In this document: one piece after another, positions 14,922 to 64,000 of the stretch
Position numbering within the stretch: the stretch's first letter is position 1
Layout: the number at the start of each line of letters is the position of its first letter
Assembly: GCA_963697165.1 (NCBI GenBank)
Contig: CAVOMX010000024.1
Location: 84,767 to 148,766, forward strand
Origin: Candidatus Bathyarchaeota archaeon
GTDB lineage: Archaea; Thermoproteota; Bathyarchaeia; Bathyarchaeales; Bathyarchaeaceae
Length of the DNA: 64,000 nt
Reading direction: 5' to 3'
Notes under the pieces: generated by a model
What the model was told of the DNA's origin: nothing
Seen by the model: the letters and a program-made list of their open reading frames with translations, nothing else
Databases searched by the model: none
Made by a program: the position numbers and the translations under genes

Positions 14922-15815
14922 ATGAGTTATCGTGAGCTCTTTGTATCCCCGTCTCCCGTCTTCTCGGGAAGTCAACGAAGCTTTGAAGAGGCAAAATACG
15001 TAGTTTTAGGTGTCCCCTTTGACGTAACCAGTACCTACCGTTCTGGGGCAAAGTTTGCGCCTCTAGCCATCAGAGACGCTTCCCAGAATGTTGAATGCTA
15101 CAGTTTCAGAACTGGCGTGGACGTTGAGGAACTGAAAATCCATGATTTGGGAGACCTGCATGTTGCGGCGGATGTTGAGTTGACTTTGGGACGTTTAGCT
15201 TTGGTTGCGCAGGACCTTTTTGAAGCCGAGAAAGTTCCAGTGTTTATTGGTGGAGAGCACACAATTACTTTAGGTGTTATGAAGAGTCTCAAAGACGTTG
15301 CAGTGGTAAGTTTTGATGCTCATTTAGACCTGCGTGATGACTATCTTGGTCTTTCTGTGTCTCATACAACCTTTATGCGGAGAATCAAAGAAGATGTTAA
15401 TCCTTCCAAGATTTTGGAGATTGGCACCCGCGCAGTATGCAGAGAAGAGCTTGATTACGCGAAAGAGGCTGGAATCGACTATCTGACTGCCCATCAGATA
15501 CGAAAGGACGGGGTCAAAAAAACGGCTGAAAAAATCAAGGAAGTCCTTGGTGGCTGCGAAAAAGTTTACGTTACAATTGACATGGATGTTCTGGATCCTG
15601 CTTTTGTGCCTGCAGTTCCGAACCCTGAACCTGAAGGATTGGATACCTCAACGCTTCTGGATCTTCTGGAGGCGGTGTGTGAGCGTCGGGTGGTTGGATT
15701 CGATGTGGTTGAGGTAGCGCCTCACTATGACCAAGGCGTAACTGCTACTCAGGCTACAAAAGTTATCTTTGAAGTGTCTAGGCTTCCTAGAAAGAGCACA
15801 AAAAAGCTAGTCTAA
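14922..15815 (+). CDS. speB: Agmatinase
   Basis: GGEHTIT, FDAHLDLRD, TIDMDVLDPAF, PEPEGL, DVVEV ureohydrolase motifs. Confidence 0.93.
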   Translation: MSYRELFVSPSPVFSGSQRSFEEAKYVVLGVPFDVTSTYRSGAKFAPLAIRDASQNVECYSFRTGVDVEELKIHDLGDLHVAADVELTLGRLALVAQDLFEAEKVPVFIGGEHTITLGVMKSLKDVAVVSFDAHLDLRDDYLGLSVSHTTFMRRIKEDVNPSKILEIGTRAVCREELDYAKEAGIDYLTAHQIRKDGVKKTAEKIKEVLGGCEKVYVTIDMDVLDPAFVPAVPNPEPEGLDTSTLLDLLEAVCERRVVGFDVVEVAPHYDQGVTATQATKVIFEVSRLPRKSTKKLV

Positions 15816-47568: not shown

Positions 47569-49497
47569 TTACTTCTTCGTAATTCTTTGGAATTCTTCGA
47601 ATGCATGTTTTGCCTCTTCTACGGAAGCGTTGTCTTCTAAGGTCGAGATGTCGCCTATTGACTGTCCAGAAACGAGTGCTTTTAGTACTCTTCGCATGAT
47701 TTTGCCGCTTCGTGTCTTCGGAAGTTTTGTAACAAAGTATATGTTTTCAGGAGTTGCGAGTGGACCAACAGCTTTTCTCATGTGATTTTTCAATTCTTTC
47801 GCTAGTTCATCGCTTGGAGTAATCCCTTCCTTTAGGACAGCGAAGACCACTATTGATTCTCCTTTGATTTCGTGAGGCTTGCTGGCTACTGCAGCTTCTG
47901 CTACTGAGGGGTGTGAAATCATTGCGCTTTCAAGCTCCACAGTTCCAAGTCTGTGTCCTGCAACCTTCAATACTTCGTCTGCTCTGCCTAGAAGCCATAG
48001 GTATCCATCTTCGTCTTTCATGCAGTAGTCTCCGGCATAGTATGCTCCTGGGAATCTTGTCCAGTATGTTTCTTTGAAGCGTTCAGGATCTTTATAGACA
48101 GTCAAGGCCATTCCAGGCCATGGTTTCTTGATTATGATGTAGCCTCTTACTCCTGCAGGTACCGGTTTTCCGTTTTCATCCACTACTTCCACATCGATGC
48201 CTGGCAGCGGATATGTCGCTGAGCCTGGTTTGAGTGGAACTAATCCTATGCCTGGTGCGGGTGAAATCATTATTCCTCCAGTTTCTGTCTGCCACCAAGT
48301 GTCTACGATTGGGCATCGTTCTCCGCCTATGTTTTTGAAGTACCACATCCAAGCTTCTGGGTTTATTGGTTCTCCAACGCTTCCTAGAATGGTTAGGCTA
48401 CTTAAGTCATGTTTTTTGACCCATTCTTCACCGAGCCGCATGAACATCCGTATTGCTGTTGGCGATGTGTAGAGGGTTGTTATTTTGTACTCTTCAATTA
48501 TCTGCCACCATCGGTCTGGCTCCGGATAGTCTGGCGCGCCTTCATACATGACTATTGATGCGCCATTTAGCAGAGGTGCATAGACGATGAAGCTGTGTCC
48601 AGTGACCCATCCTATGTCTGCGTTGCACCAGTATACGCTGTCTTCTTGGATGTCGAAAACCGATTTGTAGACGGAGTTAATGTAAACCAAGTAGCCTCCT
48701 GTGCTGTGAACTATGCCTTTCGGTTTTCCTGTGGTTCCTGAAGTGTAAAGAATGAATAATGGATGATTGCTCTCAACAGGTAGTGGAGGTACAGGTTTTT
48801 CTGTGTGTTTGACTGCATCGTGATACCAGATGTCTCTTCCTTCTTTCATGTTGATTTCGTGGCCAGTTCTTTTTACAACTAAAACACTCTTCACTGAGGG
48901 CGTGTTCTCCACTGCTTCATCAACTATAGATTTCAGCTCGATAATTTTTCCTCTCCTGAAACCGCCGTCTGCCGTTATGACAACGTTGGCTTCAGTGTGG
49001 TTTATTCGGTCAGCGAGAGCTTGTGCGCTGAATCCAGAAAAGATGACAGTGTGTATCGCGCCTATTCTGGCACATGCCAACATGGCTATTGGTAATTCAA
49101 CTATCATTGGTAAATAGAATGCTACGCGGTCTCCGTCATTTACGCCCAGTTTCTTTAGGGCAGCCGCCAACTTGTTTACTTCTTTGTGTAGTTGCAGGTA
49201 GCTTAGGGTTTTTTCTTCGCCGTTTTCGCCTACCCAGTATATGGCTACCTTGTTTCGTCTCCAATTCTTCAGGTGCTTGTCAACACACAGGTAGGATGCG
49301 TTTAGCATGCCGCCGGGGAACCATTTTGCGAATGGTAGGTCCCAGTCTAGTACGCGGTCCCATGTGCTGAACCAATCAAGTTTTCTTGCTTCTTGTTCCC
49401 AATATTCTTCAATATTATCTAATGATTTTTTGTATGTGTCCATATATCGTTTTATGGGCCAATATCTCAATTCAACTGGAAGAGAGTCTGTCTTCAC
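47569..49497 (-). CDS. acs: AMP-forming acetyl-CoA synthetase
   Basis: [37 protein letters not shown]. Confidence 0.96.
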
Positions 49498-49641
49498 ATC
49501 ATCACCTATCTCGATAGTTTCTGAGCGAACACAAAATACTGGGGCAATATATTTCTTGTGGAGTCAAAAACAGAAACGACAGCAATCAATTTCAAATTTT
49601 TGTTTCGAAAAACAGTTTTTTTAGTGAAATATTTGTGTAAA

Positions 49642-49745
49642 TGGCGGACCCGCAGGGATTTGAACCCTGGGTCTTCGGCTCCGAAGGCTTGCGCGTCACC
49701 CTTTTTTGGTGACTCGACGCCTTATCCAAACTAGGCTACGGGCCC
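49642..49745 (-). tRNA. tRNA-Arg(TCG) with 26-nt non-canonical intron at position 29/30, CCA encoded
   Basis: GGGCCCG acceptor; anticodon arm TCG[intron 49689-49714]GC-CTTCGGA-GCCGA; GGTTCAAATCC T-loop; ends GCCA. Confidence 0.9.
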
Positions 49746-49979
49746 TACCGAGAATAGATTGCAGAATAGTGTGATTAAAATATAGCGGATGTTCGGGTCT
49801 TTTTTGTTGCCAATTTTTTGTTTTACAGCTGATTGTTTAGCCTGTTTTGGTGTGTTGTTATGTTTTAAGTATCAGTCATAACCTAGTTCGGAGTTTAATG
49901 AGCCAGTTAATGTTAAGAGAATGAAGCGACTAAACTCTCTTAAATTCGACTTTAGCTAGTTTGTATAAATGGGGGTCAC

Positions 49980-50484
49980 ATGTCTGAAACATCGCAGGAA
50001 TTCAGAGTTTTGGTTATCGTTACTTATTTTGTTGGTCACTGTTATCTTTTCAGTTGTGGCTTATGTTCGCTGGTAAAGTTTACTCTTCTTTGTTGGTTCC
50101 TTGTTTTTTGTCCATTGGCTTGGTTTAGCGGCAACCGTCTTCATCGCAGGTCTAGTTCCAATTTATTATTTATTAAAACGTAAAAGACCACAAAACATTA
50201 AGATGCTACTAAAGCTTCATGTTTTCGGAAACCTTTTCTCTTTTCTGTTGGTTTCGATCCATTTTGCTCAAAACACTGGCAGATTGGCGCTGTTCTATCC
50301 AAGATTAGAAGATGGATTCGTCTTGTTTCTAGTTTTGAGTGTAATCGTAGCAACTGGAATGATCGAAAGATTTGGGGCTAAATTAAAACCTGTGAGATTC
50401 ACCAGATCTGTTCATAGATACACTGTGGTGCTTTTCTATTTTGTAACATTCGTTCATGTGCTGCAAGGCTTCAACATAATCTAA
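49980..50484 (+). CDS. Multi-TM membrane protein with several His residues (possibly heme-binding); 5' part disrupted
   Basis: HWLG, LHVFG, IHF, VHRY and VHV in hydrophobic helices; the true start is uncertain (49980 or 50101). Confidence 0.55.
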
Positions 50485-50580
50485 TGTCTCACAGTTAACT
50501 CAAGATTCTTATGGTATGAGTGTAGTCAGCACGGTTAGGTAAATGCTTTAATAAATGGAAAGATTTTATGAATTGACTAT

Positions 50581-50655
50581 GGGCTTGTAGCTCAGTTTGG
50601 CTGGAGCGTTCGGCTGATAACCGAAAGGTCGAGAGTTCAAATCTCTCCAGGCCCA
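50581..50655 (+). tRNA. tRNA-Ile(GAT)
   Basis: GGGCTTG acceptor, TTCGG-CTGATAA-CCGAA anticodon arm, GAGAG-TTCAAAT-CTCTC T-arm, CAGGCCCA. Confidence 0.96.
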
Positions 50656-50680
50656 CTTTTCAATTCACCAGGCCCACTTT
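50647..50680 (+). repeat. 13-nt direct duplication of the tRNA-Ile 3' end (att-like scar)
   Basis: CCAGGCCCACTTT at 50647-50659 and 50668-50680. Confidence 0.8.
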
Positions 50681-50697
50681 AAAAAATTTTTTAGTGG

Positions 50698-50795
50698 TCA
50701 TTTGCGTTTACGAAAGAGCATAATTTCTTCGGGCGTAGTGCAGACGAATTCGAATCCGTTCTCTATTAGTTGGCGTGCTTCTTCGCTGTCTATTC
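50698..50795 (-). pseudogene. C-terminal remnant of a putative tyrosine integrase
   Basis: Minus strand reads EEARQLIENGFEFVCTTPEEIMLFRKRK*, resembling the C-terminal tail of tRNA-associated archaeal integrases (recognised from memory); no upstream body is present. Confidence 0.6.
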
Positions 50796-50871
50796 TGCAG
50801 AAGACCGTTCATCAACTTCTATTAAGCTCCTTTATGTTCACTTTTGCTGTTGAAAAAAGGGGTAAAGTTGC
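50795..50871 (+). repeat. Island repeat copy 0 (partial); shares about 42 nt with 52487-52528
   Basis: AGACCGTTCATCAACTTCTA is identical at 50802-50821 and 52494-52513; both are followed by an A-run/G-run motif. Confidence 0.8.
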
Positions 50872-50921
50872 TTTTTGAGTTGTAAAAACGTAATGTTTGG
50901 TTGGCTCTCTTGTGGACATTT

Positions 50922-50987
50922 ATCCGATATAATAGAGTATCGTATAGCATCATTTTAACCCTAATCCGATATATTTTTATATCGGAT
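50922..50987. promoter_or_regulatory. Tandem inverted repeats upstream of the fic gene (putative operator)
   Basis: Perfect ATCCGATATA-TTTT-TATATCGGAT at 50964-50987; degenerate copy at 50922-50945. Confidence 0.65.
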
Positions 50988-51015
50988 AACATACAATTAT
51001 GTTCAGGGAAAACTA

Positions 51016-51950
51016 GTGACATTGATCAATAAGCGAATTCACAAAAGAGTGCTTGATAAGAAAAAAAGACTGGACAGCCGCAGGCCTCTTTCCGCTTCAC
51101 TTGTAAAGAGACTAAAAGAACAACTGTGCATCAACTACACATACAATTCTAATGCCATCGAAGGAAACACATTGACCTTGCATGAGACAAGGCTAGTTAT
51201 CCAAGAGGGAATTACAATTGGCGGAAGGAGCATAACAGAAATTCTAGAAGCAAAAAATCACCCAAAAGCAATAAACTTCATAGAGGATCTGGTTTCAGAA
51301 AAAGAGCGAAATTAGCGAAGGACAATATACTTAGTCTTCACAAGTTGATAATGTCCAACATTATTGACGATGCTGGATGTTATCGAACTACAGGAGTAAC
51401 AATAGGTGGAGCTGCCTTTAAACCACCACCCAGTTCAGAAGTCAAACCTAGAATGGATGAACTTTTAGATTGGTTAAGAAGAAATCCTGACGAATACACA
51501 CCAATAGAACTTACTGCAGTTTTTCATCACCGGTTCGTTTCGATACACCCATTCATAGAAGGAAATGGAAGAACAGCCAGACTTCTGATGAATGCTACAT
51601 TAATGAAAAACGGATATCCTTTCATTGCTATTGTTTCAAAAAATGATCGCCCAAAATATCTGAAATCGTTGATGGAAGCAGATTTGGGAAACAGTGCCCC
51701 TTTTGTAAACTTCATAGCTAGATGCGTTGAAAAATCTTTGGATGTATATCTCGATGCTTTGGAAGAGCCCAAAATCCTAACGCTTTCCGAAGCCGCCAGA
51801 ATGACGTCATACAGCCAAGAATACCTAAGTTTGCTTGCCAGAAAGGGGTCACTAGGAGCACATAAGCAGGGCAGAAATTGGGTAATATCCAAAAAAGATC
51901 TAGATAGATATCTGACTTCTGTAGGCAAACCGTTATCTAAGACCAAGTAA
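51016..51950 (+). CDS. Fic-domain protein with C-terminal excisionase-like HTH (frameshift near 51310)
   Basis: YNSNAIEGNTLT inhibitory-type motif, HPFIEGNGRTAR Fic motif, LTLSEAA...YLSLLARKG...GRNWVI HTH. Confidence 0.92.
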
Positions 51951-52150
51951 TTCCCGCTTTTCTAGTCTTCTTAGTCGAGAATATTGTTCCAAAAGGATAC
52001 TGGTAGCACCTGAAAACCAAAAAATGGGGGATTTTAGAACCGTCACCAGGTGAGGGGCAAAATTAGGTTTTAGGTAACACAATTTCGAATTAAAAAAATA
52101 CGCTATCTGAAACTTGGGTGCTAGAAGATGATAATGGGTATTTTGGGAAT

Positions 52151-52345
52151 TCATCTGTCATCTTCTAGGTCTTCGTAGTAGTTGTCTTCTAGGTCTATTT
52201 CGGCTTCCCAAAGTTCGAGGCACATTAAACAAAATCCATTGATTGAACATTCTTCACAGAGAGGATCTCCACACATATTACAGTCTATAACCTGATCTTC
52301 AGAAATTTTTTTTCCACAATCTTTGCAGTTTACCATCGCATTCAC
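52151..52345 (-). CDS. Small Cys-rich zinc-binding protein with acidic tail
   Basis: CKDC, CNMC, CEEC and CLMC pairs. Confidence 0.6.
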   Translation of the reverse strand: MNAMVNCKDCGKKISEDQVIDCNMCGDPLCEECSINGFCLMCLELWEAEIDLEDNYYEDLEDDR

Positions 52346-52546
52346 TCAGGAAAACTGATCCACCATAAGAGAATCAGCGTGACTATGAAAAAAGATCCAA
52401 TAAAAAGAAGTAGTTGTGACCAACCTTTTTACTCAGTCATTAATACTACTTCTAACCCAGCCCATTAGGAGTTGTTGACTAGCAGTCTACAGGAGACCGT
52501 TCATCAACTTCTAATAAGTCCCTTCATGCAAGTGCATATAATACTG

Positions 52547-52631
52547 AAAAAAAGGGAATTTGCTGGATTGAATTTGTGTGCCGGGAGATATCTCCACTGA
52601 CCGTGGGGTTCAAATCCCCGCGAACCCACCA
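52547..52631 (+). repeat. Island repeat copy 1 (most complete; 3' end resembles a tRNA T-arm/acceptor)
   Basis: AAAAAAAGGGAATTTGCTGGATTGAA...GGGAGATATCTCCACTGACCGTGGGGTTCAAATCCCCGCGAACCCACCA. Confidence 0.85.
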
Positions 52632-52865
52632 GTAATCCCTTGTTTTATCAATTAAAGCTTAATTCAGACTTATTTAGGCGAATGAAGTGTAAAATAACTG
52701 TATTGATTTGGGATTAAAATTTTTCCATTCTCAAAACTCTACTTTCATGTTCTGATTTCTCTGTTCATTGTTAATATGCAGGTTTATAAGCAGCTATGAG
52801 TTTGTTATTGTTGAATTAGTGATTTTTTAATCTAGTTTTATCGTAGAAGTGGAGGTGCGAAATGA

Positions 52866-53015
52866 ATGTCTTATGGTGGACCAAGAGAAATGCACAATGC
52901 AGTCTGCGCTGAATGTAAAAAGGAATGTCAAGTTCCTTTCAAACCAGACGAAAGTAGACCTGTATACTGCAGAGAATGTTACAGTAGTAAACGTCCTGCG
53001 AGAAGTAGATATTAG
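52866..53015 (+). CDS. CxxC-x17-CxxC domain protein (49 aa; not in ORF track)
   Basis: MSYGGPREMHNAVCAECKKECQVPFKPDESRPVYCRECYSSKRPARSRY; GGAGGTG RBS. Confidence 0.92.
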   Translation: MSYGGPREMHNAVCAECKKECQVPFKPDESRPVYCRECYSSKRPARSRY

Positions 53016-53200
53016 CTTTAGAAGCTAGTCTATGATATGTAAAAAGTGTTTTTTACAACTTTTTTTCTCTTTTTTTACTCTATTTTGTTGGATTAAGGAC
53101 ACGAATGTTACCTTTATGGACTAATGTTTGTTGGGTGTAAAACCAAAAATTTTTTTGGGTCTGGGTTTTAAGGGGAAAAACTAGAAATCATGAGTATCAC

Positions 53201-53286
53201 AAAAAGGGGGGAGTTGCGGGAATAGTTCGGGAGAATAGTGGAGATTTATCCAAAGGTTCCCTTTGCAAATGCCCACGACCCCACCA
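53201..53286 (+). repeat. Island repeat copy 2 (degenerate)
   Basis: AAAAAGGGGGGAGTTGCGGGA...GGAGATTTATCC...CAAATGCCCACGACCCCACCA. Confidence 0.75.
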
Positions 53287-53379
53287 AAATTACCCGAGGT
53301 CCATGTTGTTATTTCACTTGTGCCGTAGTTTGTATGGATTGTCCTAGTGTTTAGTACTAGTTGGGTCGACATGTTGATG

Positions 53380-53703
53380 TTACTTGGTTGGGTTGGAGAG
53401 GAAGCTTTCTTTTTCTTGTTCTATGCGTTGAGTTTCTTCGGTTTTAGTTTTAACGATGTTGTCTATGACTTCTTCAAGAGGCACAGCAACGAAAAATGTT
53501 TGGTTTTCAGTTTTTAAAATCACGAACCCCTTTTCATGCAAGTTTCTAAGGCTGCAACAGAGTTGTTGGTCATCAGCATTTAAGGCATAAGCTAAGTCTT
53601 TTTCTTCGTGTGGACCTTTTTTTGCTAGGTAAATGTACACTTGAGCATCCATCTCTGTGAGTCCTAAGCTCATTAATGCTTTAAGTGCCAATGTTAAACT
53701 CAA
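53380..53703 (-). CDS. Short TrmB-type HTH protein (module 1)
   Basis: LMSLGLTEMDAQVYIYLAKKGP...LRNLHEKGFV. Confidence 0.85.
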   Translation of the reverse strand: MSLTLALKALMSLGLTEMDAQVYIYLAKKGPHEEKDLAYALNADDQQLCCSLRNLHEKGFVILKTENQTFFVAVPLEEVIDNIVKTKTEETQRIEQEKESFLSNPTK

Positions 53704-53789
53704 TTTTATTCATCCAATGAGGCAGTAACGAACTACTGAAAACCCAAAAAAGGAAAGAAGGTATTTGTGATAGCGATACTCCCTTCTTT

Positions 53790-54215
53790 TTATTTGCCTA
53801 CTAAAACCTCTCTGTAGTGTACTCCGTCAGGATAATTCTGTAATGCCCACATGTGAAGACCTATGTATGCATTAGTTCCAGGAGCAGCGCCATAAACGAA
53901 GGCAAGCCAATCTCCATAAATAACTGCAGAGAAGAAAAGCCATTTGTTTTCCATTTCAGAAACTTGAGAAATGTCAGTGACTACAAAAGCGTTGTTTCTT
54001 TTAAAATCTCTTGCGTCCATCCACATGAGATGTTTATCTATTCCATTCACCCATTCTTGGTTCATCCCGCTTGGTAATCCAATAGCAACTCCATAAGAAG
54101 GAAAATCAACATTTGGGTTGTTCACTGCATTTTGAGGTCCAATAGCCAAAACTGGAGTTGTCAGCATAACTACAGCCGCCAATGTTGCGAAAAGGGCAAA
54201 TATTTTTTTATTCAA
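53790..54215 (-). CDS. Predicted secreted protein (module 1)
   Basis: Signal peptide (M)NKKIFALFATLAAVVMLTTPVLA; GGAGGTGA RBS. Confidence 0.8.
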   Translation of the reverse strand: MNKKIFALFATLAAVVMLTTPVLAIGPQNAVNNPNVDFPSYGVAIGLPSGMNQEWVNGIDKHLMWMDARDFKRNNAFVVTDISQVSEMENKWLFFSAVIYGDWLAFVYGAAPGTNAYIGLHMWALQNYPDGVHYREVLVGK

Positions 54216-54375
54216 ATTCTTCACCTCCCTTTGAACGATAAAGTACCACGTTCTCTTTTGGTGTTTGAACTCTATATTCTATAGGTAGTCGGAAAAAATA
54301 CGACCAAGTAGAGAATTCTTCCATAATTAACTTAAGCGCAAAACGTTCATGTCTTATTTGGCGTGGAGGGGTTAG

Positions 54376-56526
54376 TTGAGCCAAGAACAAGTACTCAAGA
54401 CGCTCACAAACCTCGGATTCGATGAGAATGACGCCCAAGTGTACGTTTATTTGGCAAAAAAGGGTATGCAGAAAGCAAGCGAAATATGTAAAGCGACCAA
54501 GTTAACAAAGCAGCAGCTGTATCCGAGCTTAAAACGGCTGCAAAGCAAAGGCATAGTAAGTTCAACAATTGAACATCCCGCGCGCTTTAGCGCATTAGCC
54601 TTCGAAAAAGTATTGGACCATTTTATTAAAGCGAAAATGGAAGAAACACAAAGTCTGCAGGAAAGCAAAGCTGAAATTCTCTCTAACTGGCAGAACCTCA
54701 AACTCGAAGATACCACGTCAGCAAAATTTACAATAATAGAAGGCAGAAGTTACATTTACTCTAAAATCCAACATATGATTCAAGAAACGAGAAACCAAAT
54801 TCTAACCATAACCACGGTTCCCGCTCTGTTGCAAGCGAACCAACGTGACATTTTCGACGTTAACTCCAATCACCTTTTAAAATCCAAGATTCAGTTCCGC
54901 TTCTTAACCGAACTGTCACAACAAAACATACATGCTATCAAAGCATTCTTGAAAGAATTCGCGAACGCTAGGCTCAACTTTGAGGGGAGAAATCCAGATC
55001 TAGGTATGACGCTTTTCCCACAGATGCTCATAAGAGACGGGGAAGAAGCATTGTTTTTCGTCAACACCCGAACAGAAACGTCAATAATTGAAAAGGATGA
55101 TGTGTGCCTCTGGACGGATTGCAAAACCCTCGTTAAAGCATTCACTGCAGTCTTTGAGGAGTCTTGGCACAACTCAACTGACATCCAAGAAAGAATAACT
55201 GAGATCGAAACGGGTAAGCTGACCCCAAAAATGTTGATTATTGTAGATGGCGAAATAGCCAAAAAGAAGTATAATAAAATCGTGAATTCGGCTAAAGAGG
55301 AAATCTTAATCATCACTTCCTCGAAAGGTCTCGTCGATTTATGGAAAAACAATACACAACTCAATGAATTGATTGAAAAGGGCGTAGCCATCAAGATTAT
55401 GGCACCAATCGTGGGCGAAGACTTGGAAGCCGCCAAACAACTTTCCAGATTTTGTTCTGTTAAGCATGTTCCGCCAAACTATCTACCAACCACAATTATT
55501 GATGGAAAACACCTTTTCCAGTTCAAAAAATCCACTACAGAGAAGCAACCGCTTGATGCATTGCCACAATTCGAAAACACTTTTTACACCAACAATCCCG
55601 AATACGTGGAAAAAACGAAAACCATGCTAAATGAAATCTGGAAAAATACTAGTCCCCCGTCTGCTGACAACTTGAAATCGATCTTTGGACCAGGTGTTCG
55701 GAGTCAAAGCGGTGCTTTTTTTCCAGGAGCAATTCACAGTCCCGGTCCGCATGGAACGTTTTATCCTTCACCTCCTGACCCTACAAAGAAAGGCGATTAC
55801 CCAGTCATTGAAATTGTTAATGAAGACCCTTCGGGAAAAATGAAAGAACAAGACGTTTTGAACGAAATTATTACAGCACAAAAAAATCCACCTAAAGATC
55901 AGGTGTGGAAATTTTATTCTAGCCAGGCAGTGGCTATCATTCACCCCTCGGACATCTTTAATTTGCCCCCTATGCTGATTCGCGTCCATCATATTGAAAA
56001 ACATTCCACATTCGGTGAACAAGATGTCATAATGATCAGCTTGTGGCTTGAGACATCCAATGGTCACGCATATGTGCCAGTTGCTGTCTTGGTGGACAGC
56101 CCCCAGGCTCAGCCTTATTGGGAAAAACATTTTGCAGCTTCACCAGCAGGTCAAAACGTTCAGGTGGCAAAGAAAGGCGAGCTACAGATTCGGGTACATG
56201 GTAACACTCTTTTCGCTGGGTGGACAGTCCCAATCCCTCTTTTTCCGGCACAGAACATCCTTCCTCCTGCATGTATGTTGATTGAAGGCTACGGAGAAGT
56301 CAAGACCGCCGCATACACGATAATTCAACCCTGGGGCGGAGAGTTTAAGGCTAAACAAAACGGCTTCGACGCCTTCGTAACTTTTATGCATCCCTCCTCA
56401 AAATATTCTGGACCAGGCACAGATGGATTCTTAGTAAGAGATTTCATCGGTGATGTAACGACTCAATTCGCTGAAGGGGTCCGTCCAACTCTGCACATCA
56501 ATCTGATTGAGAAAAAGAAATCGTGA
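54376..56526 (+). CDS. Long TrmB-family regulator: HTH + two effector-type domains + novel C-terminal domain (module 1)
   Basis: LGFDENDAQVYVYLAKKG...LKRLQSKGIV...HPARF; FTIIEGR; IIDGKHLFQF; C-terminal GFDAFVTFMHPSSKYSGPGTDG. Confidence 0.88.
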   Translation: MSQEQVLKTLTNLGFDENDAQVYVYLAKKGMQKASEICKATKLTKQQLYPSLKRLQSKGIVSSTIEHPARFSALAFEKVLDHFIKAKMEETQSLQESKAEILSNWQNLKLEDTTSAKFTIIEGRSYIYSKIQHMIQETRNQILTITTVPALLQANQRDIFDVNSNHLLKSKIQFRFLTELSQQNIHAIKAFLKEFANARLNFEGRNPDLGMTLFPQMLIRDGEEALFFVNTRTETSIIEKDDVCLWTDCKTLVKAFTAVFEESWHNSTDIQERITEIETGKLTPKMLIIVDGEIAKKKYNKIVNSAKEEILIITSSKGLVDLWKNNTQLNELIEKGVAIKIMAPIVGEDLEAAKQLSRFCSVKHVPPNYLPTTIIDGKHLFQFKKSTTEKQPLDALPQFENTFYTNNPEYVEKTKTMLNEIWKNTSPPSADNLKSIFGPGVRSQSGAFFPGAIHSPGPHGTFYPSPPDPTKKGDYPVIEIVNEDPSGKMKEQDVLNEIITAQKNPPKDQVWKFYSSQAVAIIHPSDIFNLPPMLIRVHHIEKHSTFGEQDVIMISLWLETSNGHAYVPVAVLVDSPQAQPYWEKHFAASPAGQNVQVAKKGELQIRVHGNTLFAGWTVPIPLFPAQNILPPACMLIEGYGEVKTAAYTIIQPWGGEFKAKQNGFDAFVTFMHPSSKYSGPGTDGFLVRDFIGDVTTQFAEGVRPTLHINLIEKKKS

Positions 56527-56640
56527 TAAGAAATAGCCACATTGTATCGCGGGCTCTGGTAGAGTCTTTTGCTATTATACTGATACGTTTCCATTAAATT
56601 TTAAATTGCAAACGGTTGATATCTTTGTTCAGATTTACTG

Positions 56641-57234
56641 ATGAATGCCCGATCAATTGCGCTAATAGCTACTTTTGCCGCTATTGCCATTGCTTTAAAT
56701 ACTGTCAGGATTCCCACGATTTATTGGCCGGGATTTTCTTATCATTTTAATGAAATTCCAATAGTAGTTGCGTTCCTGCTTTTTGGTCCCAAGATTGGCG
56801 TCTTGGTTGGTAGTTCTTCATCTTGCAGGTCAGGAAGCTTTGTTTCCTGTCGGTCCGGTTGGCATCGTAGTATATCCAATGGGTTTTATGGCTTTACTCG
56901 TCATGCTTTTTGGCATATATTTAGCAATTAGGTTCATTATCTACAAAGTTGCACCGGAGATGCCTATTGATGAGAAAAAGCGAACCATTTATTTGACTGC
57001 CTTTGCAGCCGTGTGTCGGGGAGCAGTTATGCCTCTAATTGCTTATGGCGTTCTGTACCGTTTCCTGTTACCGCTGGTTTTGGGGACTCCTATTCCTGAA
57101 GCATACATAGCAGCATTAGTGCCCAGTTTTGTTCTATATAATGTTACATACCCCTCTACACAATTCCTATCAGCTATGTTATAGCAAGAAGAGTAAGCAA
57201 TTACCTAAAACTGGAAGCGGAGCCTATAATATAG
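56641..57234 (+). CDS. ECF transporter S-component-like membrane protein (module 1; two frameshifts)
   Basis: MNARSIALIATFAAIAIAL, EIPIVVAFLLFGPKIG, several TM helices. Confidence 0.7.
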
Positions 57235-57351
57235 GTCTGAGAATCCAGCAATGCTCTATCTCAATTTTTGCTGCTCTTCTTTCTGAAGGGCAACTTATTA
57301 GTCAAGTATTTAGAGTCTTGATCATGTGTAGCCGATAGAAAGGACGACCCT

Positions 57352-57488
57352 AAAAAAAGGGGAGTTTGCGGGTGATGTCTCCATTGGTCCCCGGTGAAAA
57401 TCCCTACTGGTATAGTGGACTTATCTTAAGAATTAAAAAAATGGGAATTTTGCAGGAGATTTCTCCCCTGTGAGGAGAGTTCAAATCT
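57352..57488 (+). repeat. Island repeat copies 3 and 4 (tandem, shortened)
   Basis: AAAAAAAGGGGAGTTTGCGGGTGATGTCTCCATTG (from 57352) and AAAAAAATGGGAATTTTGCAGGAGATTTCTCCCCTG...GAGAGTTCAAATCT (57435-57488). Confidence 0.75.
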
Positions 57489-57551
57489 AAACTTATAGAT
57501 TTGGACTGGATGGTTTACCATGTTGTCGTCGTTAGCTAACTCTTCCTACCA

Positions 57552-59729
<2,178 letters not shown>

Positions 59730-59813
59730 CTAACTCCTTTCTGTATGTTTTTTGGAAAAAGTTATTCTAAAAAAAAGTAGCTGTTTATGCTTTTTAATAT
59801 TTTGGAGATAGTC

Positions 59814-59885
59814 AAAAAAGGGGGAGTTTGCGGGATTTTTTTGTGGGTCGGGAGATATCTCCACTGACCGTGGGTTCAAAATCTC
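59814..59885 (+). repeat. Island repeat copy 5
   Basis: AAAAAAGGGGGAGTTTGCGGGATTTTTTTGTGGGTCGGGAGATATCTCCACTGACCGTGGGTTCAAAATCTC. Confidence 0.88.
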
Positions 59886-60016
59886 AGAGATAATAAATGG
59901 GACTGGGGTCTATTCTAGACTTCAGTAATTCTAACATACATTCGAAATGGTAATTAACTGTTTGTGGAATTTTTCTTAATTATGGTTTCCAAGTTTGAGA
60001 GAAGAGGTTTTTTTGT

Positions 60017-60367
60017 TCACAATTTTTTGGAATTCTTCTTTGTGATATTTTGCCATCTTGATAAGAGTTCATCTTTCTTTTTTTTAATGAACTCTGCTTC
60101 TTCCAATTTAGTTTCCCTAAAAGAATCTAATGAATCTTCAATAGTTAATGCTGTAAATAATGCAGGACGCTTAAGGGATGCTTCAACTAACCCTAATTTC
60201 TGAAGCTTTTTTACACTACGATAGACCTGCTGCTTATACAAATTTAGTTCCTGCGATAACTCTACACCTTTCTTCGAACCATTAGTGGCAAGATAAAGGT
60301 AAACTTCAGCATCTACTTTTCCAATTCCAAGACTTGTAAGTAATCTCAATAGTTTATTACGACTCAT
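60017..60367 (-). CDS. Short TrmB-type HTH protein (module 2)
   Basis: LTSLGIGKVDAEVYLYLATNG...VYRSVKKLQKLGLVEASLKRPALF. Confidence 0.88.
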   Translation of the reverse strand: MSRNKLLRLLTSLGIGKVDAEVYLYLATNGSKKGVELSQELNLYKQQVYRSVKKLQKLGLVEASLKRPALFTALTIEDSLDSFRETKLEEAEFIKKKKDELLSRWQNITKKNSKKL

Positions 60368-60442
60368 TTAATCCCATCCTTTTTAATATAAAAAAAGAGG
60401 AAATAATTAGGGTATATTTTTGTAAACGACTTGTGGTTAGCT

Positions 60443-61147
60443 TTATGGTACTGGCATTGGTGGTATACAGGTGTCGATAGCATGCATTATAACTTTACAA
60501 TCGGTCATTGGTGCTGCATCATAATTCCATCCTGGACAAGTTAATGTTCCGTCTGCATTAAAGCCCATTCTATCTTGAGTAAGAGTGTAACCTGAAGCCA
60601 TAGGATAGAAGTCTAAGGTCATGGCTCCTTCAAAGTGGAATGAGCCACCAACCTTGTCTAACTCCATTGTAAAAGCAGGTATAACTAGATAATGTGGTGA
60701 AGGTATTATAACTAAGCATGATAGATCTACAGTTAAACTAGCGGTGATGCTGTTTCCATGCCTATCCACTTGCAGTATCTCCTCTGAAACCTCCCAATTG
60801 TTTGGACCCGCTGGTACTCCAGTCCACAGGTTTTTCATAAAATCCATATAATTAGTATTTGTTCCAATGACCGCCAAAGGCATAAAAATGCCAGCATCAG
60901 GAGTAAGTTGCCACCACATTTCTATCTGTAAATAATCTCCAGGTCCATAAGTTGAATCTGCAATGTCAAAAGCATTTATTCTAAGGAGTCCAACAGGAGT
61001 TTCCTTAACACCTGTACCCACACTAGCATATGTTACAATGACACCTTCAGGAACCTTAAATTTTTTAGCGAAAGCTGGAGCGAAAGAACTGAAAACCATA
61101 AGTGCTACAACAATAAAAATAACTGAAATTGATATTTTCTTTTTCAT
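60443..61147 (-). CDS. Predicted secreted protein (module 2), similar to the C-terminal domain of the long TrmB regulators
   Basis: Signal peptide MKKKISISVIFIVVALMVFSSFAPAFA; GGAGGTGA RBS; motifs STYG, MPLAV, PAGPN, LQVDRHGNS, GFNA. Confidence 0.82.
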   Translation of the reverse strand: MKKKISISVIFIVVALMVFSSFAPAFAKKFKVPEGVIVTYASVGTGVKETPVGLLRINAFDIADSTYGPGDYLQIEMWWQLTPDAGIFMPLAVIGTNTNYMDFMKNLWTGVPAGPNNWEVSEEILQVDRHGNSITASLTVDLSCLVIIPSPHYLVIPAFTMELDKVGGSFHFEGAMTLDFYPMASGYTLTQDRMGFNADGTLTCPGWNYDAAPMTDCKVIMHAIDTCIPPMPVP

Positions 61148-61275
61148 TTTTTCACCTCCCCCTGATGGATTTAGTGGAGATTCATATCCTCCAATCAGAA
61201 AAAAGTTATAGCGTTAATGATTATTAAAAAGGGGATGTACGGAAAAGTCACCTCTTTAGCAGGTTGCAGTTAACG

Positions 61276-63323
61276 ATGAGTACAGATACAATAGTGATCG
61301 CTCTCAAGAATTTTGGATTGACCAATAAAGAGGTAGAAGCATACATTCTTCTTGCAAAAAAGGGTCCCATAAAAGGAACAGAACTTGCTAGATTAATGAA
61401 AAGAAACAAGGGTCAAATTTATCGAATACTAAAAAATCTCCAGAAGAAAGGATTTGTAGAATCAACTCTTGAATATCCCAGACGTTTTACATCAGTTCCT
61501 TTTGGAAAGACTTTAGATCAATTAATAAGAATCAAGCAAGAAGAAGCTGCATTTATAGAGAAAACAAAAAAAGATTGGCTCAAGGATTGGAAAAAAATTA
61601 GCAAACCTCGAATCCAACAATCAATGGAAAAGTTTGTAGTTATTGAAGGTAGCAAAAAAATTTACTCAAAAATTGCTGAAATGATTGAGAACACAACAAT
61701 CAAGTTATCAGCAATATCAACTGTCAAAGATTTGGTTCGAGCTGAACAGTTTGGCGTCTTTGACTTTGCCTATAAGCATCCATTAAAAACTGAAGTTAAG
61801 TTCCGTTTTCTCACAGAAATAAATAATCAAAACCTAAAGGCGATTAAGCTACTAAAAACCAAATTAAGGGCAGAACTTGATTTTAAGGGAAGAAATCCTG
61901 ACCTAGGCTTAAGCTTGTTTCCTAGAATGGTGTGTAAGAGATGAAGAGGAAATCCTATTCTTCATATCAACAAGAACAGACCGTCCCACTAAAGAACAGG
62001 AAGTGTGCCTATTCACAAACTGCAAATCATTGGTTCAAGCATTCTCAAAGGTCTTTGAAGATTTATGGCGCAACTCAACAAATATAGAGAAAAAAATAGA
62101 GGAGATAGAAACCGGAATAAAGACTCCCAAAACATTCATTATCAATGATGCTGGGACTGCCAAAAATAGGTATAGTGAGATTGTCAACTCTGCCAATAAA
62201 GAAATTCTTGATGATGACCTCTTCAGAAGGACTAATCGGATTGTATAAAAACCTTGATTCATTAAAGGGTTTGGCGGAAAAAGATGTTTCAATAAAGATT
62301 TTAGCCCCAATAGTGAAAAAGAATCTTAAGGCAACCCAATATCTCTCCAAGTTCTGTGAAATCAGACATACACCACTAAGTTATGTTCAGACAACTCTTG
62401 TTGATGGAGAACACTTGTTTCAATTTAAGACTCCACCTTTTAGTCAAAGCATTTCAGAATCATCAATTTTTGAAAGTACCTTTTACTCAAATGATTCAAA
62501 ATATGTTAAAAGAACAAGAATAATGTTTAATGACCTTTGGAAAAGAGCCCAATCTCCATCCAAAATCACGCTTGATTCAATAACCAGTAGGAAATCTAGA
62601 ACTCAGATTTCTATTCCGGAGGAAACAGATTATTCACTATACTACAAAACATTCGGTTGGACCAAAGATCCAAAGTCCAATGATTTACGGGAAAAAGATA
62701 TTATTGAAAAAATTGTGAATGCCAAAAAATATCCAGGAGAAAACTGGAAAAATGATGTACTCAGGTATTATGGTAGTTCTGCTAAAGCTATTATTCATCC
62801 ACCAAAGAATTTTGGTTTACCAGATTTGATTATTGATGTTTTAAAATTTAATAGTCAGTCTTCTTTTGGTGCTGAGGATATTCTTTCGGTTTATTTGATG
62901 AATTATGGGACAGTTGCAACTATTCAAACTAATCCTGCAGCTGTTGATTATCGGAAAAAAGCTGTTTTTGCAAACACTCCAGCGGAAAATAATATCCAAC
63001 TATTAAAAGATGAAGAGTTTCAGGTTCGAGTTCAAGGTAACACTCTTTTTTGCGCATGGACAATTCCATTACCGCTTATCGAAAACTACATTCTTCCACC
63101 AGCATGCATACTATTTGAAGGACATGGGGAACTCAGAACAGGTATAATTCGATCAAGTATCAACAATCGTAAACAGGTAACAGAGTATAATGCTCTTGAC
63201 GCATTTGTAACATTCTTTCATCCATCATCAAAGTATTCAGGTCCAGGTACTGACGGTTTTTTTGCTAGAGACTTAATTTTCACTTCTATTCCGGAAAAAT
63301 CAGCTGCTTTGCAAAAGCAATAA
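61276..63323 (+). CDS. Long TrmB-family regulator (module 2; two frameshifts), paralog of 54376-56526
   Basis: FGLTNKEVEAYILLAKKG, FVVIEG, GRNPDLGLSLFP, LVDGEHLFQF, DAFVTFFHPSSKYSGPGTDG. Confidence 0.87.
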
Positions 63324-63384
63324 ATATCAAACGAAAACAAAAACTGCTTTGGTAATACTTTCTAGAATTCAAGGGATCATTGAT

Positions 63385-63942
63385 ATGATTAGCAGTAGAG
63401 ATCTTGCATTAATCATAGTCTTTGCTGTTCTGACTTTTGTCTTTATGTTATTAATAGGCCAAGTTCCTGAATTGGTTACTGGGATTCCTGGAATCTCATA
63501 TGTTTTCACTATAGTCTATGCTATTAATCAAACTGTTGCCCGGCTGATGTTTGAAGGAAGGAGGTGGAGAATCTTTGCCCGGGGTTCATTAGTTAGTTTG
63601 CTTGGCTTTTCATTCATTCTAACTTGGAATCGACCTTTAGGAATGGCTACAATATTAAACGCCTTCATTGTTGATGTTGTTTTCAACAGCGTTTACGGAT
63701 TATTTGAACAGAAGAATAAACTTCTTTGGTGGGCGATTCTTTCTGAAGTTTATTATTGGCCAACACACTCATTGTGGATTGTAGTATTTGGTTCATTATT
63801 TTTCTATCCTTTTGAATTGATTATGGAGCAATGGGTTATTCCCATAATGTCTGTGATGCTCCCCATCATGATAATTGAAGGAATAGCAGGCGGATACATA
63901 GGATACAAAATTTATCAGCGCGTGAAGAAAATTCAAAACTAA
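63385..63942 (+). CDS. ECF S-component-like membrane protein (module 2)
   Basis: MISSRDLALIIVFAVL N-terminal helix, about 6 TM segments, C-terminal IAGGYIGYKIYQRVKK. Confidence 0.7.
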   Translation: MISSRDLALIIVFAVLTFVFMLLIGQVPELVTGIPGISYVFTIVYAINQTVARLMFEGRRWRIFARGSLVSLLGFSFILTWNRPLGMATILNAFIVDVVFNSVYGLFEQKNKLLWWAILSEVYYWPTHSLWIVVFGSLFFYPFELIMEQWVIPIMSVMLPIMIIEGIAGGYIGYKIYQRVKKIQN

Positions 63943-63945
63943 TAG

Positions 63946-64000
63946 AAAAAGGGGGGAGTTTGCGGGATTTTTTATTGTGGGTCGGGAGATATCTCCACTG
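63946..64000 (+). repeat. Island repeat copy 6 (truncated by window end)
   Basis: AAAAAGGGGGGAGTTTGCGGGATTTTTTATTGTGGGTCGGGAGATATCTCCACTG, near-identical to copy 5. Confidence 0.88.

Follow-up and report, generated by a model that had tools for sequence, protein, structure and literature searches.

Near the end of a 64,000-nucleotide (nt) stretch of DNA from a Candidatus Bathyarchaeota archaeon (contig CAVOMX010000024.1, positions 84,767 to 148,766; hereafter the window), a short repeat recurs behind a transfer RNA (tRNA) gene for isoleucine, between blocks of genes. What is this repeat, and how did it come to mark the borders of these blocks? A sequence-only reading had proposed sites of recombination by which genes are added serially at tRNA loci, with an integron-like logic. 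The first part of this proposal is borne out by variable cargo, by units bounded by sites and by a likely cognate integrase. We consider, at a probability of roughly 0.8, that the copies are right-hand attachment sites (attR), scars of tandem accretion by a tyrosine integrase of Bathyarchaeia, and that the units between them mostly carry no integrase. All coordinates are window positions unless a contig or locus is named, and the window ends at a contig end, inside the last repeat copy. G000 denotes the genome itself (1.99 Mb, 25 contigs, given C-numbers), other G numbers denote related genomes, and L numbers are fetched loci.

The site is built from a constant and a variable part. The left arm is constant and consists of an A-run, a G-run, often a TTGCGGGA motif, 0-20 variable nt and a quasi-palindromic 12-bp box, GGWGAYRTCWCCA; two left-arm types exist, one associated with tRNA-Ile and one general. 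The right arm is variable and target-specific, and comprises the 3' end of a tRNA gene followed by its genomic trailer, with identities of up to 32 nt to tRNA-Pro(GGG) on C10 and 22 nt to tRNA-Ile on C22. Spacing is fixed: among the 76 sites in which a T-loop was found, taken from G000 and from fetched loci that were in part selected by the model, the distance from box to T-loop is 10 nt in 52 and 11 nt in 18, irrespective of the tRNA. Some copies hold an antisense tRNA D-arm, or the antisense first codons of a protein gene, in the right-arm slot, and in all right-arm classes identity to the target begins about 9-13 nt past the box, which brackets the position of the crossover and does not fix it. 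What had been taken for tRNA mimicry is the duplicated end of the target gene, genomic trailer included. The consensus given by the sequence-only reading proved to be a composite, and the perfect palindrome in it is present in three of the seven copies in the window and, across the class, in 20 of 124 sites. Another near-palindromic motif, with a GGTTAAA-TTT core, was seen in the 45 nt 5' of 9 of 58 sites in G000; it is enriched there, having 224 matches genome-wide and 0.0025 expected per such interval.

A search for a cognate recombinase revealed a likely family of tyrosine integrases of about 390-440 amino acids (aa), with an N-terminal Zn ribbon, a PF00589 domain and the catalytic series R-K-HxxR-H-Y. 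The stretch HTFRH is present as H-x-x-R or a variant in all seven aligned full-length members, and never as Y-x-x-R. Two integrases with intact catalytic motifs are encoded in G000. Members of the family score 60 and 79 bits with TIGR02249 (cut-off 265) and 41 and 45 with NF011946 (cut-off 435), far under the IntI and XerA cut-offs, and matches in PDB are limited to distant XerA and IntI4 structures. At the tRNA-Ile locus itself, G003 and G012 carry a full-length integrase and G005, G016 and G024 carry remnants. Full-length genes lie beside an attachment site in G003, G012, G019, L451 and L474. The window has no PF00589 match and holds just a 30-codon remnant at 50701..50790, which aligns with the full-length Ile-linked integrases and whose DNA is about 90% identical to that of G003, G005 and G016 up to 50789.

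Linkage of site and enzyme was also seen at 124 loci that were chosen by an exact box-spacer-T-loop pattern, independently of proteins. Integrase pieces occur in 22 of them, and 9 of 17 integrase C-ends (at 9 of the 124 loci) lie antisense at +74 to +218 nt from the start of the box, where 3.3% would be expected (binomial p ~8e-10, for loci that are not fully independent). Whole elements found elsewhere have the order tRNA, integrase, cargo, arm and a copy of the same tRNA end. In G019 (L062), for example, tRNA-Pro is followed by a 435-aa integrase, by primase-, methylase- and terminase-like cargo and by the arm. A survey that started from the integrase covered 88 loci (80 metagenomic, 8 viral), and four of them show the tRNA end a second time, at a distal position upstream of the integrase: L451 (Ser), L455 (Pro), L462 (Pro) and L474 (Phe). 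The arm is present in all four, weakly in L462. L476 is a mirror case on the 5' side of a tRNA, and the integrase open reading frames (ORFs) of L455 and L476 are devoid of the N-terminal part. Six further loci have the integrase directly after an arm-plus-target junction. The 5' ends of protein genes serve as targets as well: two arm-to-target spans in G000 (C6:57318-63076 and C17:82207-88238) enclose broken integrase genes, and a third arm, at C18:120903, has its target at C20:8275-8308 beside a full-length integrase. One of these protein-gene targets resembles a formyltransferase gene.

Some further features of the integrase loci deserve mention. Integration on the 5' side, in which the integrase reads into the 5' end of tRNA-Pro, was observed in G000 (C10:25806-26240) and at L020, L175, L476 and L480; these loci have distant arms followed by an antisense tRNA D-arm. 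The record L308 (IMG/VR, 24 kb) ends about 105 nt past an arm-plus-tRNA site, like the right end of a provirus. Two roles considered for these genes were rejected. The arm is not the promoter region of the integrase, as the box lies within 220 nt upstream of none of 30 full-length genes (duplicates included), and in a second set an arm is near the start of 1 of 73. Nor is the integrase upstream of tRNA-Pro the gene of a fixed, integron-like platform, since only some of 16 Pro loci have it in that position and the genes found there vary.

A stand-alone ORF of 35-47 aa, homologous to the N-terminal Zn ribbon of the integrase (DUF7838-like), has a ribosome-binding site and a stop immediately after the ribbon. 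It starts a few tens of nt from the arm, reads away from it and has no copy in the window; it was seen in G000 at C24:2148-2273 (L024:349-474, minus strand) and in L385, L387, L390, L391, L399, L403, L412, L186, L170 and L427. The arm lies beside 7 of 11 such short ORFs versus 0 of 14 full-length genes, and in a second set beside 1 of 4 versus 1 of 59. A look-up of the 42-aa ORF in the Atlas gave weak matches of low recognition to unnamed and InsA-type Zn-ribbon clusters. The stand-alone protein is a candidate directionality factor.

The repeat is widespread, and its distribution is not random. An iterated profile found 64 matches in G000 at E<=0.5 (two opposite-strand repeats of one place included) and 42 at E<1e-3, on 15 of the 25 contigs; the reversed genome gave none. 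Thirty of the 42 copies have a neighbour within 8 kb, compared with a mean of 11 and a maximum of 23 in 1000 random draws, and 29 of these 30 lie on the same strand as the neighbour. The longest array is the one at tRNA-Pro on C10, with 15 co-oriented copies, in most of which the arm is conserved. A sequence-only model matches 23 of 25 genomes of the genus at E<=0.001, the weakest matches possibly being tRNAs. At E<=1e-7 it matches 30 of 141 class genomes, which belong to 20 of 76 genera. The exact pattern occurs in at least 123 stretches of the species collection. Among the pattern matches listed, 80 titles comprise 68 Bathyarchaeota or Bathyarchaeia, 7 other or unnamed archaea and 5 bacteria, some of them maybe misbinned, and the right arms of these stretches match many different tRNA ends. 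A generic repeat scattered through the genome had been named as the outcome that would speak against recombination sites; copies are indeed genome-wide, yet they are clustered, co-oriented and tied to variable borders. Near-duplicate stretches were noticed at the starts of C22 and C24 and between C12 and C14, and suggest that the assembly holds two co-binned strains.

How could such arrays arise? Lambda-type recombination is the established basis for the exchange between a circle and a tRNA gene. By analogy, a circular DNA unit that carries arm, core and target end would be inserted by the tyrosine integrase through recombination at the T-arm, which would restore the tRNA and leave an attR, so that each repeat copy would be the right-hand junction left behind. 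A unit would then read as target-gene end and trailer, cargo and constant left arm, and repeated insertion at tRNA-Ile would build the array. Most units would have lost their integrase, or never had one, and would rely on an enzyme from elsewhere. The box may be bound by the Zn ribbon of the integrase or by a host factor, the crossover probably lies within the T-arm, some 10-13 nt beyond the box, and the A-run may act as a terminator on the opposite strand.

The array of the window has the following parts:

50581..50656, plus strand: tRNA-Ile(GAT), the target gene and left array end (attL); found by ARAGORN and Rfam.
50657..50700, plus strand: trailer common to Ile-type sites elsewhere in the genome and to the integrase-bearing element of G003; probably an element-borne right arm.
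50701..50790, minus strand: C-terminal 30 codons of a tyrosine integrase gene that converges on the tRNA; the remainder of the gene is absent (tblastn).
50794..50871, plus strand: site 1, decayed, with the 43-nt repeat D9 and an A/G-run, lacking box and right arm, and not matched by the profile.
51016..52345: cargo unit 1, with a Fic-domain gene in two frames (51016-51315 and 51345-51950, plus strand) and a 64-aa Cys-rich ORF (52151-52345, minus strand).
52486..52546, plus strand: second copy of repeat D9, immediately 5' of site 2.
52547..52631, plus strand: site 2, a hybrid junction with an Ile-type left arm and a tRNA-Pro-type right arm (box 52584-52595, T-loop from 52608).
52605..53221, plus strand: CxxC-x17-CxxC unit (gene 52863-53015, PF23477 in Pfam).
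53201..53286, plus strand: site 3, with box (53240-53251) and tRNA-Pro-type right arm both degenerate.
53380..57184: module 1, with a small TrmB helix-turn-helix (HTH) gene (minus), a 144-aa ORF with a hydrophobic N-terminus (minus), a 716-aa TrmB-family regulator (plus) and an energy-coupling factor (ECF) S-component in two frames (plus).
57352..57414, plus strand: site 4, with a short left arm, box 57371-57382 and a decayed right arm assigned by hand to the Pro type.
57435..57488, plus strand: site 5, with a decayed arm and identity to the tRNA-Ile T-arm; it ends the Pro-type block begun at site 2.
57552..59723, minus strand: katG catalase-peroxidase unit (Pfam).
59814..59890, plus strand: site 6, with an Ile-type left arm, box 59851-59862 and a shortened Ile-derived right arm.
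60017..63942: module 2, with a small TrmB-HTH gene (minus), a 234-aa ORF (minus), a large TrmB-family regulator in pieces (plus) and a 197-aa membrane ORF (plus).
63946..64000, plus strand: site 7, with an Ile-type left arm and box 63985-63996, truncated by the contig end.

The copies at 52547, 53201, 57352, 57435, 59814 and 63946 are all intergenic, on the plus strand and at block borders, as had been claimed. The partial copy at 50853 is a bare A/G-run missed by the profile; we count it as a decayed site because the same 43-nt repeat D9 precedes it and four better copies. The right arm described as tRNA-like is complete in the copy at 52547, degenerate in that at 53201 and incomplete elsewhere in the window. 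The 14-nt identity with the T-arm of tRNA-Ile was found again at 57475-57488. The right arms at 52547 and 53201 are of the tRNA-Pro(GGG) type (19 and 11 nt identical), though the array sits behind tRNA-Ile.

Around these sites we made several side observations. Repeat D9 lies immediately 5' of the arm at five places (50794-50836 and 52486-52545 in the window; C22, C11 and C2 of G000). Its minus strand reads TGATGA and, in three copies, CTGA 15 nt further on, an arrangement that we presume to be box C/D-like; a role as integrase coding sequence was rejected, since homology to intact elements ends at about 50790. An inverted repeat at 50920-50989, upstream of the fic gene (26-nt arms, 81%), is probably an operator. 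The four-gene module (small TrmB-HTH, secreted-type ORF, large TrmB-family regulator and ECF-like membrane protein) recurs as cargo at 53380-57184 and 60017-63942, on C19 and C14 and in G001 (L087), and its large regulator has a long C-terminal region with no family assignment. Further upstream, at 49642-49745 on the minus strand, lies an intron-containing tRNA gene, by eye tRNA-Arg(TCG), which a default ARAGORN run missed and an intron run labelled Trp; its syntenic counterparts are called Arg in some relatives.

Comparison with relatives shows that the cargo behind tRNA-Ile varies, and the invariant block order that would have told against accretion was not found. The cargo of the window is present at the tRNA-Ile locus in none of 16 mapped relatives, some of whose stretches end at contig ends, and co-oriented sites follow tRNA-Ile in 9 of the 16. 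G019 is nearly empty at this locus, and a conserved far flank is common to several relatives. Individual units occur elsewhere. The CxxC unit (52582-53221) matches a Pro-type array of G019 (L084), among other neighbours, with 92.7% identity over 646 nt, and high identity begins at the T-arm and stops in the next left arm. The katG unit has a second copy behind the same double site in the tRNA-Pro array on C10 (57369-59733, 96.6% over 2366 nt, from the box onward), where it runs off the contig; in G006 katG is flanked by two sites. A homologue of module 2 is the first unit behind tRNA-Pro in G001.

Some junctions are hybrids. In the window, site 2 joins an Ile-type arm to a Pro end and site 5 joins a general arm to an Ile end, so that a Pro-type block lies inside an Ile junction; the array on C10 holds the reverse hybrids, Ile in Pro, at 15156 and 13221. 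Because a Pro-type circle would spoil tRNA-Ile, these hybrids suggest that units entered existing junctions, through the integrase or through homologous recombination. We are slightly inclined to believe that units without an integrase are excised and inserted again in trans, and that junctions of a different tRNA type can receive them.

In a tally of 17 arrays, an Ile-type arm ends none of 33 units with a Pro start and 10 of 20 units with an Ile start, which assigns the arm to the unit on its left. A number of observations weigh against this account. Eight labels in the tally were assigned manually, and the genomes compared include relatives that do not count as independent. A co-binned strain may be the source of the second katG copy, two contig starts being near-duplicates. 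A tRNA-type right arm is lacking in 26 of the 58 classified copies of G000, and a target could be assigned to no more than three of the classes among these. In G003, a 51-nt copy of tRNA-Ile begins in the anticodon stem and has no arm. Most of the 88 integrase loci show no distal end in view, the arm is absent from five virus records with an integrase (four of which end within 63 nt of the integrase match), and the virus-like record L308, which ends in an arm site, holds no integrase match. G001 has 13 sites and just a partial integrase of the family. Lastly, neither an excised circle nor an empty site was seen in the assembled contigs. Contigs from four public runs, compared with 48500-64000, gave low and patchy cover, and joints with sides of 20-31 nt inside repeats are too short to count.

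These points bear on several other explanations. One agrees on the identity of the sites and differs on mobility: each attR scar would stem from a unit with its own integrase, since decayed in place, integrase-less units would be immobile or dependent on a neighbour, and the hybrids would be products of homologous recombination. We regard this as possible, at well below even odds. It accounts for the integrase C-terminal remnants of many lengths that start units, unit 1 of the window included, and for the fragmentation of several cargo genes, and it matches the definition of cis-mobilizable elements (CIMEs) in the available text of PMC7563491. It fits poorly with a 0.6-kb one-gene unit that two species share at 93% identity, in arrays of different type and with borders at sites, with the reciprocal Pro-in-Ile and Ile-in-Pro blocks, and with an arm conserved in most of the 15 C10 copies. 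That the repeat is a repetitive extragenic palindromic (REP) or miniature inverted-repeat transposable element (MITE), or a generic terminator near tRNA fragments by chance, as the sequence-only reading had allowed, is very improbable. The 42-64 copies on 15 of 25 contigs, the A-run that is a U-tract on the opposite strand and the roughly one half of copies without a tRNA arm would suit such an element; clustering, shared strand, fixed spacing to the target, integrase linkage and above all whole integrase-bearing elements contradict it, and terminal inverted repeats (TIRs) or short target duplications were not noticed, no systematic search having been made.

An attC-like single-strand hairpin or a structured small RNA is about as improbable. 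The left arm is roughly complementary to the Pro-type right arm, and the plus strand as RNA is slightly more stable than shuffled sequences (mean z -1.02, about -1.0, with 9 of 48 copies below -2), a mild stability that is expected from the tRNA T-arm in each copy. Over the same 48 copies mean z was -0.49 for minus-strand RNA and -0.26 (plus) and +0.02 (minus) for DNA. The nested hairpin that had been drawn has z values of -1.3 to +0.8 as single-stranded DNA (eight copies, both strands), a consensus structure of 30 copies in RNAalifold has two pairs and -0.48 kcal/mol, and the box halves show no covariation across the 124 class-wide sites; as the right arm changes with the target, any pairing between the arms is broken. 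No RYYYAAC or GTTRRRY box lies near the six window copies examined. Neither a conserved structure with covariation nor an Rfam family was found, for Rfam returned tRNA-end-type matches and nothing else. The folded, attC-like form of the site was rejected, as was the non-coding RNA. Casposon ends, placed at tRNA ends by Cas1, are about equally doubtful. Casposons target tRNA-Pro and have palindromic TIRs according to the available text of PMC6614799, and 9 of 25 genus genomes have solo cas1 genes, one of which lies inside a Pro island. Cas1 pieces are absent from all 124 pattern loci, against 22 with integrase pieces; none of 20 stretches around cas1-bearing regions has arms flanking cas1 (one weak arm lies about 1 kb from a cas1), and the four Cas1 fragments of G000 (tblastn; missed by Pfam) are not beside a site. 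The arms repeat in direct rather than inverted orientation, and the duplication is longer than 14-15 bp; the casposon layout of cas1 and polB between TIRs with a 14-15 bp duplication was not found, polB itself not having been searched for. In passing, L364-L382 hold many solo cas1-like genes of about 345 aa from Bathyarchaeia, with no CRISPR-associated or polB neighbours obvious from unannotated ORF lists. Least probable of all is reverse transcription primed by tRNAs: the minus strand is complementary to tRNA 3' ends, but the copies carry genomic trailer, Ile copies end like the gene, which encodes no CCA here, and 5' ends of protein genes occupy the same slot.

Accretion by a tyrosine integrase can be set beside known systems. 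The tandem re-use of sites by elements with tyrosine recombinases, and 5' versus 3' integration at tRNAs, are described for archaea in the available text of PMC6563490 and PMC8371274. Islander maps T-arm subsites and tandems and, in the part of PMC4383910 available, reports four tandems of three or more among 3919 islands, with an integrase required for each member. Class II (lambda/pNOB8-type) archaeal elements are among the closest: as far as the available text of PMC8371274, PMC6563490 and PMC4383910 goes, the points in common are an intact integrase by the regenerated tRNA, with a displaced piece of the tRNA at the far end, use of a T-arm subsite, integration on the 3' and more rarely on the 5' side, protein genes as targets and the repeated use of one site in tandem. 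An intact tRNA with a displaced direct fragment was found at sites 5 and 6, in the C10 array (up to 32 nt) and at L451, L455, L462 and L474, and an unsplit catalytic integrase beside an attachment site in G003, G012, G019, L451 and L474. As against these elements, the present system has one arm and box for many targets, arrays of up to 15 sites, mostly integrase-less units and an N-terminal Zn ribbon. The pNOB8-type enzyme has R...YxxR...Y (PMC8371274, available text), whereas HxxR is found here; SSV-type (suicidal) genes contain the attachment site, are split at a fixed point upon integration and have KxxR, whereas these genes are whole when integrated, with remnants that break at many positions.

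Accretion in bacteria offers a second comparison. CIMEs of streptococci and ssrA islands of Dehalococcoides, as the available text of PMC7563491 and PMC3146451 presents them, are tandem units that keep attachment sites and lack recombination genes, with adaptive cargo of 1-13 kb in variable order; the units of the window, too, keep the site, show no recombination or transfer genes beyond the integrase remnant and stand in tandem at a target. They differ in that the present units are archaeal, share one arm across many targets and turn up one by one in arrays built on a different kind of target. No conjugation module was seen, a search for relaxase and coupling protein not having been run, and in Dehalococcoides a serine recombinase acts at a single target (PMC3146451, available text). 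Tycheposons of Prochlorococcus likewise show successive tRNA integration, partial tRNAs, integrase fragments and niche-gene cargo, in another domain and with another integrase family; an arm shared across targets is not described in the available text of bioRxiv 10.1101/2020.12.28.424599. The tRNA-Thr element of Caldiarchaeum, compared by description alone, is archaeal, bounded by a tRNA fragment, present in several related copies per genome and on the 5' side of the tRNA, but it is 1.8 kb long with its own putative recombinase, and the available text of PMC3293823 reports no cargo arrays. Integron arrays, including archaeal ones, and clusters of attC sites lacking integron-integrases (CALINs) share small units, a conserved site, reshuffling and an integrase that is usually not nearby (bioRxiv 10.1101/2022.02.06.479319, available text). 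The integron-like label thus holds for the outcome, as arrays of small units change order and place here as well, and fails for mechanism and family membership. Archaeal integrons require attC folds and IntI (same source, available text), neither of which was found: attC boxes and fold are absent, the site contains target-gene DNA, the integrase is far below the IntI cut-offs on TIGR02249 and NF011946 scores (the additional domain was not separately inspected), and cargo genes face both ways and have promoter regions of their own.

A description of the site was not found in the literature searched, most subscription papers and all supplements lying outside the search, and the available text of PMC10848311, PMC11529989, PMC6614799 and PMC3293823 does not describe it. 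Compared with known systems, what appears new is an arm that serves many targets, long arrays without integrases, hybrids between targets and, at copies elsewhere, a stand-alone Zn-ribbon gene by the arm. A bolder and rather unlikely extension is a target-promiscuous cassette system, in which the shared arm and box would allow any integrase of the family to move single integrase-less units to any junction, regardless of the tRNA or protein gene at its origin, and the stand-alone Zn ribbon of about 40 aa would set the direction; if true, it would be an equivalent of the integron built from double-stranded, lambda-type attachment sites. Bathyarchaeia are abundant archaea of sediments whose routes of gene gain are little described. 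The arm is a signature by which units of accessory genes, among them katG, regulators and transporters, can be searched for and delimited throughout the class, and a candidate enzyme family can now be named. That one constant arm reaches many tRNAs and protein-gene starts is relevant to the evolution of integrase specificity, and the integrase family may offer a genetic tool for an archaeal group that has none.

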